From IMG/VR virus record IMGVR_UViG_2703718859_000020: DNA of 6,425 nucleotides; one strand, given 5' to 3'. Shown piece by piece: positions 1,858 to 6,425 of this stretch. Source of the stretch: a virus. Taxonomy: Duplodnaviria; Heunggongvirae; Uroviricota; Caudoviricetes. The translations under genes and the position numbers were made by a program. The notes below the pieces were generated by a model, which ran no database searches, was not told the DNA's origin, and worked only from the letters and a program-made list of their open reading frames with translations. The stretch's first letter is position 1. Each line of letters starts with the position of its first letter.

Positions 1858-1973
1858 GAATAAACGCCATAATACTGAGGTATAACCATGATGAAATATA
1901 CGCCCGTACAGGGGCGGGGATTCGTTCGCCCTGGTGAATCTGAAAAGCCATGCTATAGGGTATTTTCAGGCAT

Positions 1974-2003
1974 AAAAAAAGCGGTCCCGATATGGAACCG
2001 CCT
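1974..2003 (-). terminator. Rho-independent terminator for the minus-strand cassette transcripts
   Basis: Stem GCGGTCCC (1981-1988) / GGAACCGC (1995-2002), 7 of 8 bp paired, loop GATATG. On the minus strand it is followed by a run of 7 U (plus-strand A-run 1974-1980). Located 66 nt downstream of the cassette B second gene. Confidence 0.55.
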
Positions 2004-2069
2004 TTCTGAACAATTAACCCGCTGCGCCGTATGTGTCAACAATCATAAGCCCGAACATGATAACCGTGA

Positions 2070-2273
2070 TCAGGCTGGTGGGCAATTACCTTGCTTGTTG
2101 GGGCCGTATTGTGCTGCCATTTTCATCCGTTCAGAACGTGAATATTTTTTTAGAAACTCATCAAGGACAAAAGCGCATGGAGCGAATCTTTCTGATTCAT
2201 GCTCGAGCGCCATATTTTCGTGCTCTCTGTTCGTTTTTTGCGATGGTGTATTGGTTGATTCTTTATTGGTCAT
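2070..2273 (-). CDS. Small protein of unrecognised family, 67 aa (cassette B, gene 2)
   Basis: ATG at 2271-2273, stop at 2070. Paralogous to the 2787-3014 ORF: shared MTN start and motif F-x-L-[DE]-[DE]-F-x-x-K-Y-x-R (FVLDEFLKKYSRS vs FALEDFVDKYPRR), with the same 57-nt spacing from the upstream RHH gene. Weak SD. Confidence 0.45.
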   Translation of the reverse strand: MTNKESTNTPSQKTNREHENMALEHESERFAPCAFVLDEFLKKYSRSERMKMAAQYGPNKQGNCPPA

Positions 2274-2330
2274 TGTGTGTACCTGTAAAGCAATGCGCCG
2301 TAGTACCTCACGCCACGGCGCTGATAGTAA

Positions 2331-2510
2331 TTATTCTGATTCTTTGGCCTTGCGGCGCTGGCGGCGTTTGATCTCGCCTTTTGCTGCCGTAACTAGAAAT
2401 CCGGCGGTACTTTCGCCAGGTTCTTTAAGTTGCTCAATATCGGTCATTACCTCATGCGGGATTCTGACCGTTGTCATTTGTGATTTTGCGTTCTTTGCAC
2501 CTGTTGCCAT
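2331..2510 (-). CDS. Ribbon-helix-helix (CopG/Arc/MetJ-like) DNA-binding protein, 59 aa (cassette B)
   Basis: ATG at 2508-2510 with SD AGGAG 8 nt upstream. Sequence MATGAKNAKSQMTTVRIPHEVMTDIEQLKEPGESTAGFLVTAAKGEIKRRQRRKAKESE shows the RHH pattern: N-terminal beta-strand (TTVRIPHEV), helix A, a G-E-S-T turn, helix B, and a basic tail. The six-frame track extends this ORF to 2735, but the internal ATG with the SD is the supported start. Confidence 0.7.
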   Translation of the reverse strand: MATGAKNAKSQMTTVRIPHEVMTDIEQLKEPGESTAGFLVTAAKGEIKRRQRRKAKESE

Positions 2511-2530
2511 TTCTGGTTCTCCTGATAATC

Positions 2531-2623
2531 GGTGTATTTCAGTATACGCAAAAAAAAAGATAAAAAAAGTCTTGCGGTGTATTTCACCTGAATGTAGATT
2601 TAAAAATGAAGGTGAAATACACC
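2531..2623 (-). promoter_or_regulatory. Cassette B promoter with three copies of operator motif GGTGTATTTCACC
   Basis: Minus-strand -10 TATACT (plus 2541-2546) about 31 nt upstream of the start codon; the -35 is poor (T-rich). Motif copies at 2531-2542, 2576-2588 and, inverted, 2611-2623; the last two form a perfect 13-bp inverted repeat with a 22-bp spacer. Confidence 0.5.
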
Positions 2624-2634
2624 CAAAACAACAA

Positions 2635-2678
2635 CGCCCCGCAGTGATGGGAACACATACGGGGCGTCTAACCAAACC
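2635..2678 (-). repeat. Conserved GC hairpin (CGCCCCG-N18-CGGGGCG) followed by TCTAACCAA, upstream of the cassette B promoter
   Basis: Read directly; a homologous element lies upstream of the cassette A promoter (3385-3427). On the minus strand the hairpin is followed by a T-rich tract (TTGTTGTTTT). Confidence 0.4.
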
Positions 2679-2747
2679 ATTAATTGAGGTAACGATTATG
2701 GCTATAAAAGAGCATAGCTTACTCTTTATACACACACAAACGCCCCG

Positions 2748-2767
2748 GAAACGGAATAATCCGTTTC
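2748..2767 (-). terminator. Weak hairpin after cassette A gene 2 (GAAACGGA-ATAA-TCCGTTTC)
   Basis: 8-bp stem with a 4-nt loop, 20 nt downstream of the stop at 2787. Only a weak T-rich tract follows on the minus strand. Confidence 0.3.
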
Positions 2768-2786
2768 ATAGTTCGGTTTTGTGCAC

Positions 2787-3014
2787 TCATCCTGGCGGTC
2801 GGTTTTTGCCGGATTTAAGCCGCCGTGGGTATTTATCGACAAAATCTTCAAGGGCAAATTTTTCTGGTGGCACTAAGCGCGGCGCTGGTGGTGGTATTTT
2901 TGTTCTGGTTAGTTCTTCCTCAACTCTGGCGCAGGCTTCTGACTGCCTTTGCCGGATGATTTCATCATCTTGCGTTTGCGTGTCTTGTATTGGTGATAGT
3001 GTGTTGTTGGTCAT
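2787..3014 (-). CDS. Small protein of unrecognised family, 75 aa (cassette A, gene 2)
   Basis: ATG at 3012-3014, 57 nt after the RHH stop; paralog of the 2070-2273 ORF (same motif and position). Weak SD (AGGG). Confidence 0.45.
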   Translation of the reverse strand: MTNNTLSPIQDTQTQDDEIIRQRQSEACARVEEELTRTKIPPPAPRLVPPEKFALEDFVDKYPRRLKSGKNRPPG

Positions 3015-3071
3015 GATACTGCCCTGTAAAGCAATGCGCCGTAGTACCTCACACCACGGCGCTGATAGTGA

Positions 3072-3251
3072 TTATTCTGATTCTTTGGCCTTGCGACGCT
3101 GGCGGTATTCAACTTCCCGCTTTAATGCAGCTGTAACAAACTGCCCTGTACTTTCGCCGGGCATTTTTACCGCCTCAACATTGTTCATAACTTCATGTGG
3201 AACCCTTGCCGCAACTGTTTGTGATTTTGCGTTTACTGCTTTTGTCGCCAT
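3072..3251 (-). CDS. Ribbon-helix-helix DNA-binding protein, 59 aa (cassette A)
   Basis: ATG at 3249-3251 with SD GAGGGG 8 nt upstream. MATKAVNAKSQTVAARVPHEVMNNVEAVKMPGESTGQFVTAALKREVEYRQRRKAKESE is 36/59 identical to the cassette B RHH protein and has the same length and RHH pattern. Confidence 0.7.
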   Translation of the reverse strand: MATKAVNAKSQTVAARVPHEVMNNVEAVKMPGESTGQFVTAALKREVEYRQRRKAKESE

Positions 3252-3280
3252 GTTGAGCACCCCTCATAAAAAACAAATGC

Positions 3281-3353
3281 AGTATGCAGGAAAAAAAACA
3301 AGTGTTCAACACTTGACGTGTTTAACACCTCGATTTAAATTGGTGTTCAACAC
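3281..3353 (-). promoter_or_regulatory. Cassette A sigma70-like promoter overlapped by three palindromic operators GTGTT-N-AACAC
   Basis: Minus-strand -35 TTGAAC (plus 3304-3309), 17-bp spacer, -10 CATACT (plus 3281-3286), about 30 nt upstream of the start codon. 11-bp palindromes at 3302-3312, 3318-3328 and 3343-3353; the first overlaps the -35. Confidence 0.5.
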
Positions 3354-3384
3354 CTTATTTAGGCAAGGTGTAGAAACGACGAAA

Positions 3385-3427
3385 CCCCGCACTGTAGGAG
3401 CAGTAACGGGGCTTCTAACCAACAACG
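3385..3427 (-). repeat. Conserved GC hairpin (CCCCG-N17-CGGGG) followed by TCTAACCAA, upstream of the cassette A promoter
   Basis: Homolog of the 2635-2678 element, in the same position relative to the promoter. Confidence 0.4.
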
Positions 3428-3634
3428 TAAACGAGGAGCCGTTATGGTTGCCGTAAATCATATACCACACCTTGTACACACACAAACGGCCTTTGTGTGG
3501 CGTTTTCTGGCACTGAGTGCCGGAGAATCTCAAATAATCCACGTAACCGCCTGGACGGAACGCGAAGCACGTAACCGTTGCCCGTCAGGTTGTGTTGCTG
3601 TATTCGCCGCCCGTATTCGCCAGGGGGTAGGCTT

Positions 3635-3868
3635 ATGAGCCAGGAAATCACACTACAACAGGCAGCAGAACGCGCCCACCAAATCGAAGTTATTTGCGCA
3701 CTGGCAGAGGATTACCCTGGCATGATGACCGACAGCGAATCAGGGGCAATCATCGGCTTACTTAAACGCCTTAGCGGTGAGGTCTGCGTATTCCTGAGCG
3801 ATGAACAGGAAAGAAGAACGCTTATTTCTAACGAAAAAAAATGCGGAGGGGTACACCATGTGCAATAA
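3635..3868 (+). CDS. Small helical protein, 77 aa, first gene of the replication-side operon
   Basis: ATG at 3635 with SD AGGGGG 7 nt upstream. The track ORF 3578-3868 has an earlier start with no SD. Its stop overlaps the next ORF's start by 11 nt. Confidence 0.5.
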   Translation: MSQEITLQQAAERAHQIEVICALAEDYPGMMTDSESGAIIGLLKRLSGEVCVFLSDEQERRTLISNEKKCGGVHHVQ

Positions 3869-4094
3869 CATCCGTCCGGACGCAGCCGCCGAAGCCATCA
3901 TAACGCTAATGCATGCGCTGATTGATATTTCTGTTATTGCTGACAAGGCGCATAAGCACGCCACCAGTGAAACAGAATATGCAGGGGCTTTCGTTCCTCA
4001 TTCGCTGGCGGTTATGCAACTTAGTGCTGATATGGCGCTGAATGAGGCAGGCAAAATTCTTACCGCAGATATTCAAGGGGCGCACCATGCATGA
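3858..4094 (+). CDS. Small helical protein, 78 aa, apparent paralog of the flanking ORFs
   Basis: ATG at 3858 with SD GGAGGGG 6 nt upstream. Shares a ...S-E-x-x-x-AGAF[VI]-x-x-[SL]L... motif and a preceding [AW]L-x-D-x-S segment with the 4087-4302 ORF. The start could instead be 3801 (no SD). Confidence 0.5.
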   Translation: MCNNIRPDAAAEAIITLMHALIDISVIADKAHKHATSETEYAGAFVPHSLAVMQLSADMALNEAGKILTADIQGAHHA

Positions 4095-4302
4095 TGACCG
4101 TTATTTTAAATTAATGAGCCATGCAGAAAACGCACTGACTAACAGTGAATGCTTGCGGAAAATATTGCTTATCTGGCTTGATGGTTTAAGTGATGCGCCG
4201 GAAGGTGAACGTGAATCTAATCTTGCTGGTGCGTTTATTTCATTACTCGATACGGTAATCACCGAATTAAATAAAGCGATCGAAATTCACGATAAAAAAT
4301 AA
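4087..4302 (+). CDS. Small helical protein, 71 aa, apparent paralog of the 3858-4094 ORF
   Basis: ATG at 4087 with SD AAGGGG 6 nt upstream; ATGCATGA overlap with the previous stop. Contains NLAGAFISLL, matching YAGAFVPHSL in the previous ORF. Confidence 0.5.
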   Translation: MHDDRYFKLMSHAENALTNSECLRKILLIWLDGLSDAPEGERESNLAGAFISLLDTVITELNKAIEIHDKK

Positions 4303-4318
4303 ACGCGGAATAAAAACC

Positions 4319-4618
4319 ATGAAAAAGAAAATTTCTGGCTTAACTGCTAGTGGCAACACTCACCCTAAATTTACGCGCGGCGATATTTACCGCGACCAGT
4401 ACGGCGGCACGGTAACGATTAAAGGTGTAGAAGAGCGACGCATTACCTACCGCCGTGAAGGCTACGAATATGACTGCGTGATGCCTGTTTATCAGTTCCG
4501 GCGTGATTTTTCTCTGGTACAGACCGCGCCGCATAACGTGCCCACCAGCAGGGAGAAAGCACGCGCCAATATTCAGAAGATGAAAAACATGATTAACGGA
4601 TTCAGGGGCAAGAAATGA
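4319..4618 (+). CDS. Hypothetical protein, 99 aa
   Basis: ORF whose stop overlaps the rep start (ATGA at 4615-4618), suggesting translational coupling. Weak SD. No family recognised. Confidence 0.45.
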   Translation: MKKKISGLTASGNTHPKFTRGDIYRDQYGGTVTIKGVEERRITYRREGYEYDCVMPVYQFRRDFSLVQTAPHNVPTSREKARANIQKMKNMINGFRGKK

Positions 4619-6012
4619 AAAGCGCACCGAACTTAAAAAAACAGCCTTACGACAAGATGACCGAAGTCATCATTTTTGCGGGTAGTGATGCGTGGGCACA
4701 TGCGAAACAGTGGCAGGAACAGGACGGGCGACTGGCTGGCGATAATGTGCCTCCCATTGTGCTGGCTGATGATCAACTGGATGAACTGGCAGACCTGAGA
4801 ATCATCGACGAGGGGCGCTATTGTGTCCGGCTGTACAAGGCAGGCCACATCAGGCCATCAAATATTAATGCCATTGCGCACAAGCTGGCGGCGGCGGGCG
4901 TAACTGATGCGAATTATTACCCCGAAGGGATACACAGCCAGAAGCGGGAGAACTGGCGCGAATATCTGGAACGGGAGCGGGGGAAAAAGCCAGGGGAAGA
5001 ACACCACCAGCGAAAAACCACGCTACCGATGAGCGTTGGATCTGCCGGATACGACACGCAATTAGATTACGTGGTAAAGGGGATTATTCCGGCATCGTCG
5101 CTTTGCAGCATATACGGGGCGAGCGGTTCCTATAAATCATTCCTTGCGGGTTCGTGGGCGTGTCACGTTTCCACGGGCCGCCAGTGGGGAGGCCGCAGGG
5201 TGGCGCATGGCGCTGTTCTCTATGTGGTTGGTGAAGGCGGTATCGGCGTTCCGCGTCGTGTAAAAGCCTGGGAGGTTGTGCACGGTGAGCAGGTGAAAAA
5301 TCTGTATCTGGTAAACCGTCCCATCTTTCCGGCGGTCCCGCTTGATGTTGATGAAATGGTTATCGCTGCCCGTCAGGTGGAGCGGGAAACGGGTAAACCT
5401 GTACGCATGATTATTCTGGATACGCTGGCGCGTTGCTTTGGTGGGAATGATGAAAATGATTCCCGTGATATGGGGGCGTTTATCCGTGGTTGTGACGAAC
5501 TGAAACGACGCACAGGGGCCACGGTGCTGGTGGTTCACCATTCCGGCAAGGATGAGACGAAAGGCGCGCGCGGTTCCAGTGCATTTCGTGCATCACTGGA
5601 TGCTGAATACCGGATACGCAGGGAGGACGCAGGAAGCGAAGCGCTGGTTATCTCATGCACCAAAATGAAGGACGCGGAGGAACTCAAAGAGGCTGCCTAT
5701 GATTTGCGGGTGGTGGAGCTTTTTACCGACGCTGACGGGGAGTTAATCACGTCGCTGGTGGTGGTGGATAAGCCGCGCCCTCCCGTTGAACTGGAGCGCA
5801 TCGAGGAGGCAGGGAACAAGACGGAAAACCATACCGCGCTATGGGGGTGCATCCGTTCACGCACACAGAACGGCGACAAGTGCACGATCCCGCTGTTACG
5901 TGATGACATGAAAAAACTGGGGTATGAAATGAAAAACTTCCGGCGCTGGCTGTACAAGCTGGAAAAAGATGGGGTTATTCGTATCGATGGGGATGATGTA
6001 GCGCCGCTATAA
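4615..6012 (+). CDS. Replication-associated RecA-fold P-loop ATPase (RepA / AAA_25-like helicase or initiator), 465 aa
   Basis: SD CAGGGG 6 nt upstream. Walker A-like SIYGASGSYKSF (residues ~165-176, deviant with Tyr where the second Gly is expected), Walker B VRMIILDTLAR (~263-273), and VLVVHHSGKD typical of RepA/DnaB-like proteins. N-terminal ~150-aa domain and a basic C-terminal ~70-aa region consistent with a DNA-binding winged helix. Confidence 0.8.
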   Translation: MKSAPNLKKQPYDKMTEVIIFAGSDAWAHAKQWQEQDGRLAGDNVPPIVLADDQLDELADLRIIDEGRYCVRLYKAGHIRPSNINAIAHKLAAAGVTDANYYPEGIHSQKRENWREYLERERGKKPGEEHHQRKTTLPMSVGSAGYDTQLDYVVKGIIPASSLCSIYGASGSYKSFLAGSWACHVSTGRQWGGRRVAHGAVLYVVGEGGIGVPRRVKAWEVVHGEQVKNLYLVNRPIFPAVPLDVDEMVIAARQVERETGKPVRMIILDTLARCFGGNDENDSRDMGAFIRGCDELKRRTGATVLVVHHSGKDETKGARGSSAFRASLDAEYRIRREDAGSEALVISCTKMKDAEELKEAAYDLRVVELFTDADGELITSLVVVDKPRPPVELERIEEAGNKTENHTALWGCIRSRTQNGDKCTIPLLRDDMKKLGYEMKNFRRWLYKLEKDGVIRIDGDDVAPL

Positions 6013-6203
6013 AAGTGAGGAGCAAAAGCGAGGGGGGTAGAAAGAGGGCCAAAATTAGCCTGCTCTCCCTCACTTTTCGACCTGTATACATCCTCAAAAG
6101 TGAGGGGTAAAAAAATACTTATGAAACACACACATAGAAAAACCAAAAATCCCAACTGCGACGAAGTGAGACGCTTGAAAAAGTGAGGCAAAAAAGTGAG
6201 AGG
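6011..6203. repeat. Iteron cluster: candidate replication origin immediately 3' of rep
   Basis: Copies of AAAGTGAGG or close variants at 6012-6020, 6025-6033 (AAAGCGAGG), 6097-6105, 6163-6171 (GAAGTGAGA), 6180-6188 and 6194-6202, plus an inverted copy CTCCCTCACTTTT at 6065-6077. The two sets flank an AT-rich segment (about 6106-6160). Confidence 0.6.
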
Positions 6204-6212
6204 TTGCGAGAA

Positions 6213-6425
6213 ATGACCCAAAAACGCAGAGACAGAACAGAGCCGAAATATAAGGCGTTAGATATGGCTGAACTGGCTTTAAAGGTGGCAATCAGAACGA
6301 TAGACCGCCACGCGGGGGAAGGATACGCGAAAGCACATCCCGAACTGATAAGCGCATTCATGACCACGACGGCGGCAAATTTTGCCACGCTGACAGAGCG
6401 GGAGATTGCCGAAGCGGAACAGGTA
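6213..6425 (+). CDS. Hypothetical protein, 5' part only (runs off the window end)
   Basis: ATG at 6213 with GAGAGG upstream; open frame for 71 codons to the window edge (MTQKRRDRTEPKYKALDMAELALKVAIRTIDRHAGEGYAKAHPELISAF...), with ordinary helical-protein composition. Not in the supplied track because it has no stop inside the window. Confidence 0.45.
   Translation, partial: MTQKRRDRTEPKYKALDMAELALKVAIRTIDRHAGEGYAKAHPELISAFMTTTAANFATLTEREIAEAEQV

Follow-up and report, generated by a model that had tools for sequence, protein, structure and literature searches.

Three small genes between icd and rep in a phage satellite

We analysed a 6,425-nucleotide stretch of viral DNA (IMG/VR record IMGVR_UViG_2703718859_000020; "the window" below), which by its gene content in profile searches is the left arm of an integrative phage satellite of Escherichia, a phage-inducible chromosomal island (PICI) that is most likely of the capsid-forming subtype (cf-PICI). 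Our subject is a run of three small open reading frames (ORFs), here called ORF1, ORF2 and ORF3, which overlap each other on the plus strand between an icd-like gene and the replication gene rep. An earlier note on this DNA had described them as an array of paralogs. The comparisons reported here do not support paralogy; they point instead to three unrelated families of small acidic proteins that occupy a variable slot in the operon.

ORF1 (3635-3868) encodes 77 amino acids with an isoelectric point (pI) of 5.0, ORF2 (3858-4094) 78 amino acids with a pI of 5.5, and ORF3 (4087-4302) 71 amino acids with a pI of 5.0. The coordinates, lengths, ATG starts and overlaps that the earlier note gave for them were all reproduced. 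The ORFs lie in three different frames, within a six-gene order of icd, ORF1, ORF2, ORF3, DUF4222 (RgdR) and rep, whose successive junctions are overlaps of 4, 11 and 8 nucleotides, a 16-nucleotide gap and a last overlap of 4 nucleotides. The icd stop and the ORF1 start share an ATGA, as do DUF4222 and rep, while the ORF1-ORF2 overlap is exactly 11 nucleotides (ATGTGCAATAA) and the ORF2-ORF3 overlap exactly 8 (ATGCATGA).

Each start is preceded by a Shine-Dalgarno (SD) sequence, which we ranked by the energy of its duplex with the anti-SD against all 330 plus-strand start codons in the window. The SD of ORF1 (AGGGGG, 3622-3627, 7 nucleotides before the ATG) reaches -10.7 kcal/mol and falls in the top 1.2%; that of ORF2 (GGAGGGG, 3845-3851, 6 nucleotides before the ATG and within ORF1) reaches -10.0 kcal/mol, in the top 1.8%; and that of ORF3 (AAGGGG, 4075-4080, 6 nucleotides before the ATG and within ORF2) reaches -6.8 kcal/mol, in the top 7.3%. 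The spacing of 6-7 nucleotides proposed earlier thus stands for all three. Longer alternative starts at 3578, 3801 and 4042 have no SD upstream, and no terminator-like site was found on the plus strand within the three-ORF array. The junctions are also kept in relatives, divergent alleles included: the ORF1 start in 21 loci, the 11-nucleotide overlap in 25 and the 8-nucleotide type of overlap in 40, and the RefSeq annotation of relatives uses the same starts and reading frames. Taken with the gene content of the element, the overlaps and SDs agree with the earlier description in that small genes coupled in translation stand at the head of an early operon, here of a satellite, and precede rep.

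All three ORFs have near-identical homologs in E. coli annotated as hypothetical, and each falls into a family of its own among the PHROGs. ORF1 matches phrog_1478 (E=3e-28, residues 2-62 on positions 1-61 of 63; our cluster S3), ORF2 matches phrog_5146, which is the N-terminal half of phrog_2512 (E=2.6e-35, residues 1-78 on positions 1-74 of 74; cluster S1), and ORF3 matches phrog_2196 (E=7.4e-23, residues 4-70 on positions 3-69 of 74; cluster S0). A database search with ORF2 matched 218 clusters. An exhaustive HMMER search with ORF3 against 1.84 billion representatives, in which long multi-stretch matches were set aside as coiled-coil noise, returned only about 15 small clusters of the ORF3 family. 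Conservation is therefore not confined to one of the three, since all of them are kept as families, and all three families are already catalogued, as PHROGs of unknown function and as RefSeq hypotheticals.

In codon alignments, the ratio of non-synonymous to synonymous substitution rates (dN/dS) is about 0.3-0.55 for the ORF2 and ORF3 families; icd and DUF4222, which flank the array, have ratios of about 0.23-0.27. Of the frames compared for ORF2, the annotated one gives the lowest ratio, while ORF1 has too few substitutions for its ratio to inform on the reading frame. None of the ORFs antisense to the array matched a family. By these sequence measures ORF1, ORF2 and ORF3 are real genes. The rapid divergence ascribed to them in the earlier note holds for two of them, alleles of ORF2 being 29-95% and alleles of ORF3 30-99% identical to each other, but not for ORF1: the 260 genomes with its window-type allele all share it at 95% DNA identity or more.

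The small families have median pI values of 4.8-5.2, compared with about 10 for Icd, RgdR and YlcI. No family in Pfam or PADLOC and no known defence, anti-defence or anti-CRISPR (Acr) profile was matched by any of the three; NCBIfam gave a single chance-level match, for ORF1 (E=0.087; 12 bits, where the cutoff is 357), and profile searches of the Protein Data Bank (PDB) gave only noise (E>0.3). AlphaFold models ORF2 as a two-helix hairpin (helices 7-40 and 48-77) with a predicted local distance difference test score (pLDDT) of 66.5, and ORF3 likewise as a helical hairpin (helices 4-34 and 39-70; pLDDT 74.4). Foldseek comparison of these two models with the PDB and BFVD returned nothing significant (best E = 2.3, 7.9 and 0.5).

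The three proteins belong to unrelated families

If the genes were tandem paralogs that had diverged almost beyond recognition, a common helical-hairpin fold and remnants of shared motifs might be all that is left to see, and several observations are in keeping with that. All three proteins are acidic and similar in size, ORF2 and ORF3 are both predicted to form hairpins of helices of about 30 residues, and E-x-x-x-AGAF[VI] is truly common to these two. It is, however, the sole such element: taken literally, the longer motifs that the earlier note had assigned to both proteins, [AW]L-x-D-x-S and S-E-x-x-x-AGAF[VI]-x-x-[SL]L, fit ORF2 alone. The AGAF[VI] core is carried by 13 of 41 members of the ORF2 family, 2 of 48 of the ORF3 family and none of 7 of the ORF1 family, and in ORF2 it falls within a central region that many alleles have lost. 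An identical 4-mer is shared by 9.3% of shuffled ORF2/ORF3 pairs. The motif that is conserved in the wider ORF3 family is a looser one, [GA]A[VIF][IM][ST]LL.

The direct comparisons were negative at every depth. BLASTP gave no alignment for any ORF pair at E<=100, and the Smith-Waterman scores of the three pairs were within the range of 2000 shuffles (p = 0.50, 0.25 and 0.18). Family alignments were built from 80 IMG/VR loci anchored on DUF4222 together with annotated E. coli loci, and hhalign among all the family profiles, judged against column shuffles and reversals for shallow and deep profiles alike, gave a probability of at most 1.7%. When the ORF3 profile was deepened with remote members, its comparison with ORF2 reached a probability of 1% (E=0.054) over 13 columns. 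The score of this match, 14.7, was reached by just 1 of 60 column shuffles, which speaks for a relationship; yet the match is non-collinear, as it places helix 2 of ORF3 on helix 1 of ORF2. In the deepened set the ORF1 profile scored against ORF2 or ORF3 as shuffles did. The ORF3 HMMER matches included none that looked like ORF1 or ORF2, with no explicit HMM check made for these.

Under single-linkage clustering the families are connected by fusion proteins only, with no intermediates; an apparent ORF1-ORF2 link proved to be a fusion ORF and was discarded. The window itself supplies a yardstick of what true paralogs look like here, as its two YlcI/YnfO-family genes are 60% identical (E=3e-24), unlike ORF1-3. 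As for the models, a two-helix hairpin is the default all-alpha topology at about 75 residues, and the predicted likeness is no evidence of common descent. We thus consider it improbable that the array arose by duplication; on the sequence evidence, none of the three genes is a copy of another, and they represent three unrelated families.

A variable slot in the operon of capsid-forming PICIs

Compared across loci, the stretch is a variable slot, filled with between one and five small ORFs that come from six or more unrelated families. The order is icd, an optional ORF1-family gene, an ORF2-family gene, an optional gene of a 127-residue family, S2, an ORF3-family gene, DUF4222 and rep, and the operon type belongs to cf-PICI satellites of Escherichia and Shigella. 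The ORF1 family is present in about 25 of 82 loci, and a member of the ORF3 family stands directly upstream of DUF4222 in 72 of the 73 loci analysed. S2 is a fourth small acidic family (65-93 residues) that normally sits between the ORF2 and ORF3 families. It is missing from the window, and its absence goes with the rare class of ORF3 alleles to which that of the window belongs (adjusted mutual information, AMI, 0.70); the window allele itself is found in 64 of 5,426 genomes.

A further family, of 61 residues and with a pI of about 8, is unrelated to ORF1-3 and directly follows icd in three places: prophage-like element Sp7 of E. coli Sakai (ECs1578; locus L117, 7691-7876), E. albertii (L115) and E. 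coli EC93 (L118, 4001-4186). In E. albertii this single unrelated ORF (3276-3461 of the locus) fills the whole slot, while in Sp7 it is accompanied by ORF1-family and ORF3-family genes. EC93 (NZ_CP061329.1, 3427856-3436189) carries the same operon type in a PICI that is inserted in a phage portal gene and has a BRO-N gene between alpA and its YlcI gene; it corresponds to the helper-embedded PICIs described before (PMC10111431).

The borders of the slot behave differently from its contents. DUF4222 (4319-4618, plus strand), the downstream border, encodes a basic protein of 99 residues (pI 10.2) that matches the DUF4222 family (E=2.9e-24) and has a TRGD motif; it is a homolog of RgdR and 80% identical to Sakai ECs1581. 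Across loci it is 86-93% identical, far better conserved than any other gene in the operon, between highly variable neighbours. The last gene, rep (4615-6012, plus strand), encodes in the window a RepA-type AAA_25 replication protein of 465 residues (Pfam and PHROG matches); in related elements a primase or a DUF927 protein takes its place, and the same small families are found alongside each of the three. Neither replicase type nor icd allele was associated with the allele classes of ORF2 and ORF3 (AMI about 0), a test of limited power for the replicases, with 24 distinct combinations.

The small-ORF families are specific to satellites. Among 50,697 phage genomes there was no homolog of ORF2 and one of ORF3, in a satellite-like record of 16.5 kb. 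In species-representative genomes, patterns of the ORF2 family found nothing, and the DUF4222 anchor led, outside E. coli, only to Shigella flexneri and E. albertii.

Fusions between neighbouring genes

Neighbours in the slot can be joined into one protein. Among the loci compared (L001-L082; for example L038, 2266-2769, and L046, 436-870), 16 have the ORF2 family and S2 as one fused protein (142-173 residues) and 44 have them separate; phrog_2512, with 154 positions, corresponds to such fused proteins, of which the window lacks the S2 half. The second type of fusion involves a run of eight adenines (A8; 3834-3841, plus strand) at the 3' end of ORF1, 17 nucleotides before the ORF2 start. Loss of one A (A7) joins ORF1 to ORF2 in frame and gives a protein of about 146-152 residues. 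A8 and A7 were counted 21 and 3 times in the analysed loci, the latter being the three fusion loci, and 29 and 2 times in IMG/VR, where A9 was not seen. Two such fusion proteins, P0007 and P0012, represent 76 and 47 database members. The A7 variant could be a sequencing error, a recurrent mutation or the mark of a site of transcriptional slippage. The neighbour fusions suggest that the products act together.

Promoter region and the rest of the element

The operon opens with the gene for the Icd-like protein (3444-3638, plus strand), which has 64 residues and is basic (pI 10.3); it matches NCBIfam NF033153 (E=5e-18, 64.9 bits against a cutoff of 25) as well as PHROGs, and is 98% identical to Sakai ECs1577. 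Upstream of it lies the only sigma-70-like site, TTGACG-17-TAAATT (3313-3341, plus strand), in a divergent region shared with the YlcI/YnfO-family gene at 3072-3260 on the minus strand, which adjoins icd. The site is flanked by three perfect palindromes GTGTTNAACAC (3302-3312, 3318-3328 and 3343-3353). With one mismatch allowed, the window holds four matches to this sequence, the fourth, with one mismatch, at 1605; none of 200 shuffles reached this number. From its layout, 3302-3353 is probably the operator and promoter of the icd-to-rep operon. No C4 or isrK RNA was found upstream of icd; an Rfam scan at E<=1 gave two chance matches elsewhere in the window.

The minus-strand genes ahead of icd form a duplicated regulatory module: two genes of the YlcI/YnfO family, with a small ORF after each (67 and 75 residues), at 2070-2510 and 2787-3260. 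The upstream copy lies beside a repeat set of its own, three copies of GGTGTATTTCAC (two direct and one inverted, at 2531-2542, 2576-2587 and 2612-2623), which differs from the GTGTTNAACAC set adjoining the other copy. Two repeat sets in one element suggest two repressor-operator specificities. A plus-strand open frame of 522 residues (1888-3456) runs antisense to the four minus-strand genes and is almost certainly spurious; Sakai ECs1576 (247 residues, beginning 'MKIEYTPERGRGF...') looks like an annotated version of it.

Further upstream are a tyrosine integrase gene (1-1230; Pfam integrase match) and the gene for an AlpA regulator (1605-1793; Phage_AlpA match). Between them an AT-rich hairpin (1381-1462) has a sub-threshold Rfam match to BSnc120 (27 bits against a gathering score of 114); it is probably a terminator-like structure that matched by chance. 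Downstream of rep, iteron-like repeats AAAAGTGAGG stand at 6011, 6096 and 6179, 83-85 nucleotides apart, with closer AAGTGAG copies as well (6011-6223), and these fit the PICI replication origin, which the literature places downstream of the replication gene. The window thus holds what marks a Gram-negative PICI, with int and alpA at one end, a unidirectional operon with a replication gene, and origin repeats downstream. It stops 413 nucleotides past rep, and a structural module would lie beyond its end. The nearest full-length relative, 95% identical across 92% of the window, is an element of about 15 kb inserted in tqsA, which continues with ssb, perC, capsid, protease, portal, connector, HNH and terminase genes. 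Because it has capsid, protease, portal and terminase genes of its own, we class it as a cf-PICI of the EcCIEDL933 type (bioRxiv 10.1101/2022.09.08.507074). The literature on Gram-negative PICIs puts the stretch that we describe between two zones, that of AlpA and integration and that of replication, and gives its ORFs no function (PMC10111431; PMC6092414).

Relation to operons with known phenotypes

A functional lead comes from a locus for cell death and superinfection exclusion in E. coli ECOR61, where cell death is set off by orf24, an accessory gene of a phage (Silas et al., bioRxiv 10.1101/2023.04.06.535777). Tn5 insertions that suppressed orf24-dependent death in that study fell in an Icd-like gene and in a pair of hypothetical ORFs beside it, which overlap (186 and 192 nucleotides), and reconstitution of cell death needed all of six linked genes, including the primase. 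The window has the same type of layout: both are operons of satellite or prophage-like character that start with an Icd-like gene, continue with overlapping small ORFs, end in a replication gene and comprise six linked genes. Sakai Sp7 and EC93 come closer still, with the same lengths of 186 and 192 nucleotides and the same overlaps of 8 and 1 nucleotides, in an operon of icd, three small genes, DUF4222 and primase. The 61-residue family that follows icd there (ECs1578 in Sakai) thus equals one of the ECOR61 suppressor genes in length and in its 8-nucleotide overlap. From gene lengths, overlaps and annotation only, we infer that the ECOR61 locus is equivalent to this Sp7-type operon; the exact ECOR61 geometry of 366, 186 and 192 nucleotides was not found among the collected loci.

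Sp7, also known as CP-933C or OI-51, is an EcCIEDL933-type cf-PICI of E. coli O157:H7, and its genes ECs1577-ECs1582 can be compared with the window one by one. Besides the near-identical Icd and the similar RgdR, it has an ORF1-family gene (ECs1579, the gene of 192 nucleotides; 63 residues, 52.5% identity, HMM 3.2e-36) and an ORF3-family gene (ECs1580; HMM 4.7e-29) in the same order. It differs in that the unrelated 61-residue gene ECs1578 follows icd, that it has no gene of the ORF2 family, and that a primase stands in place of RepA; conversely, ORF2 of the window has no counterpart in Sp7 or ECOR61. Relatives of two of the window ORFs, ORF1 and ORF3, would therefore be found in an operon type that is genetically linked to phage-triggered cell death, if the equivalence of the loci holds. 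Another phenotype of this operon type belongs to its border gene: RgdR of CP-933C/OI-51 is an activator of the type III secretion system (T3SS) that the enterocyte effacement locus specifies (PMC10877973). Within z1835-z1843 of CP-933C only rgdR was needed for T3SS activation, and no role was given to the small ORFs in that work (PMC3378721).

Two older systems offer likenesses of position. The immI operon of phage P1 runs c4 RNA, icd, ant, and the left operon of satellite P4 runs from the cI RNA to epsilon, orf151 and alpha, so that in P4 epsilon is encoded upstream of the alpha primase gene. As in the window, an icd-type first gene is coupled to downstream genes, and small regulators that do not bind DNA (Ant, epsilon) lie near early or replication functions. 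The likeness is positional only, as no C4- or isrK-type RNA was detected in the window and ORF1-3 have no similarity to Ant or epsilon in the libraries searched. The cI/C4 RNAs of P4 are described in the literature (PMC10111431). On the structural side, the top Foldseek match of the ORF3 model was the phage anti-activator Aqs1 (PDB 6v7v), a helix-loop-helix protein of about 60-70 residues that works by binding other proteins; the match is not significant (E=2.3, TM score 0.45-0.50, 15% identity) and reflects a generic likeness of hairpins.

What the small proteins may do

Our preferred reading, held tentatively, is that ORF1-3 are three unrelated acidic helical proteins that fill a cassette slot and serve as accessory subunits of Icd-like growth arrest and/or of the interplay between satellite, helper and host. 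The six genes would be transcribed together from the operator-flanked promoter at about 3313-3341 upstream of icd, and ORF1-3 would be translated by coupling, through their overlaps of 4, 11 and 8 nucleotides and with an SD of their own at each start. Because of their charge, their predicted fold and the absence of DNA-binding features, we think it likelier that they act by binding other proteins than by binding DNA. They could then be adaptors, sensors or co-effectors, be it of an Icd-like function in growth arrest or exclusion, of the dealings between satellite, helper and host at induction, or of both. By analogy with ECOR61, they may take part in an Icd-dependent cell-death or exclusion phenotype. 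A positive role is likelier than that of an antidote, since insertions downstream of icd in ECOR61 suppress toxicity rather than enhance it. The idea that the small proteins are antidotes to Icd was accordingly given lower weight, with the caveat that polarity could confound the effect of the Tn5 hits.

Several points weigh against this preferred account. The effects of Tn5 in the small ORFs could reflect polarity on downstream genes such as rgdR and the primase gene; a functional role for the alleles of the window itself is argued from relatives; and the equation of ECOR61 with Sp7 goes as far as gene lengths, overlaps and annotation. The operon of the window ends in a RepA helicase rather than a primase, ORF2 replaces the unrelated 61-residue gene of ECOR61 and Sp7, and the ORF2 family is linked to no phenotype. 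The hairpin models, of ORF2 and ORF3, are of moderate confidence only (pLDDT 66 and 74). Finally, allele classes of icd and of the small ORFs are not associated, so that there is no signal of co-evolution for an Icd partnership.

The strongest competitor, which we regard as possible but doubtful, is that the three are independent accessory genes, each directed at a separate helper-phage or host target (as antirepressor, helper-interference or anti-defence factor) with no connection to Icd. Presence and absence of genes and shuffling of alleles within a defined slot, under relaxed constraint, are what such genes would show, and the independence of their allele classes from icd and rep fits as well. 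Small acidic helical proteins are typical protein inhibitors, Aqs1 being the top, non-significant, structural match, and P4 epsilon and P1 icd-ant provide positional analogies. Against independence stand the lack of any match to an anti-defence, Acr or defence profile, the neighbour fusions, which favour joint action, and the near-invariance of ORF1, which is unlike an arms-race gene; moreover, the sole genetic data place an ORF1-family gene in one phenotype with icd.

It is unlikely that the small proteins are accessory factors of replication, such as loaders, adaptors or origin-remodelling subunits that work with the downstream Rep. Their position would suit this, as they share an operon with rep, lie directly upstream of it and stand in the zone before the replication module, and so would the primase requirement in the ECOR61 reconstitution. 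The allele classes of ORF2 and ORF3 are nevertheless independent of whether RepA, primase or DUF927 follows, the same families accompany all three, and many elements do without ORF1 or S2. No DNA-binding or ATPase signature is seen in the proteins, which are acidic, and the genes listed as essential for PICI induction and transfer are only int, alpA and pri (PMC10111431).

As something of a long shot, we also speculate that the small-ORF cassette is the specificity layer of an Icd-based abortive-infection module of the satellite. Each hairpin family would bind a different phage protein, such as that of orf24, or a host factor, and would then license the Icd-like effector, perhaps together with RgdR and the replicase. 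If so, an arms race over the recognition of triggers would have left its mark in the shuffling of the cassette and the fusion of neighbours; in a minor variant, slippage at the A8 tract would yield the ORF1-ORF2 fusion as a regulated second product. After these come the tandem paralogs dealt with above. That frameshifts broke up a single longer ancestral gene, and that the ORFs are its decaying remains with no function as separate proteins, is hardly credible: three different frames, short overlaps and the existence of fused versions (ORF1-ORF2 via A7, ORF2 family-S2) would agree with it, but every ORF starts at an ATG of its own with a strong SD, split junctions prevail among the loci and are kept across divergent alleles, dN/dS is below 1 in each family, and each family also occurs alone in other cassette combinations.

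The finding is ordinary in kind, being one of small uncharacterised accessory genes in a mobile element. Its reach is that of the elements concerned: 1,388 of 5,426 complete E. coli genomes match some part of positions 3400-4650 of the window, and cf-PICIs and related PICIs are thus carried by roughly one in four such genomes, or more. The genes between icd and rgdR in these elements are all annotated as hypothetical, and a defined slot with several satellite-specific families corrects the idea of a paralogous array. With two of the families tied, through inferred equivalence, to the operon type of orf24-dependent death, this slot may offer a concrete six-gene system for asking how a satellite senses the accessory proteins of phages.

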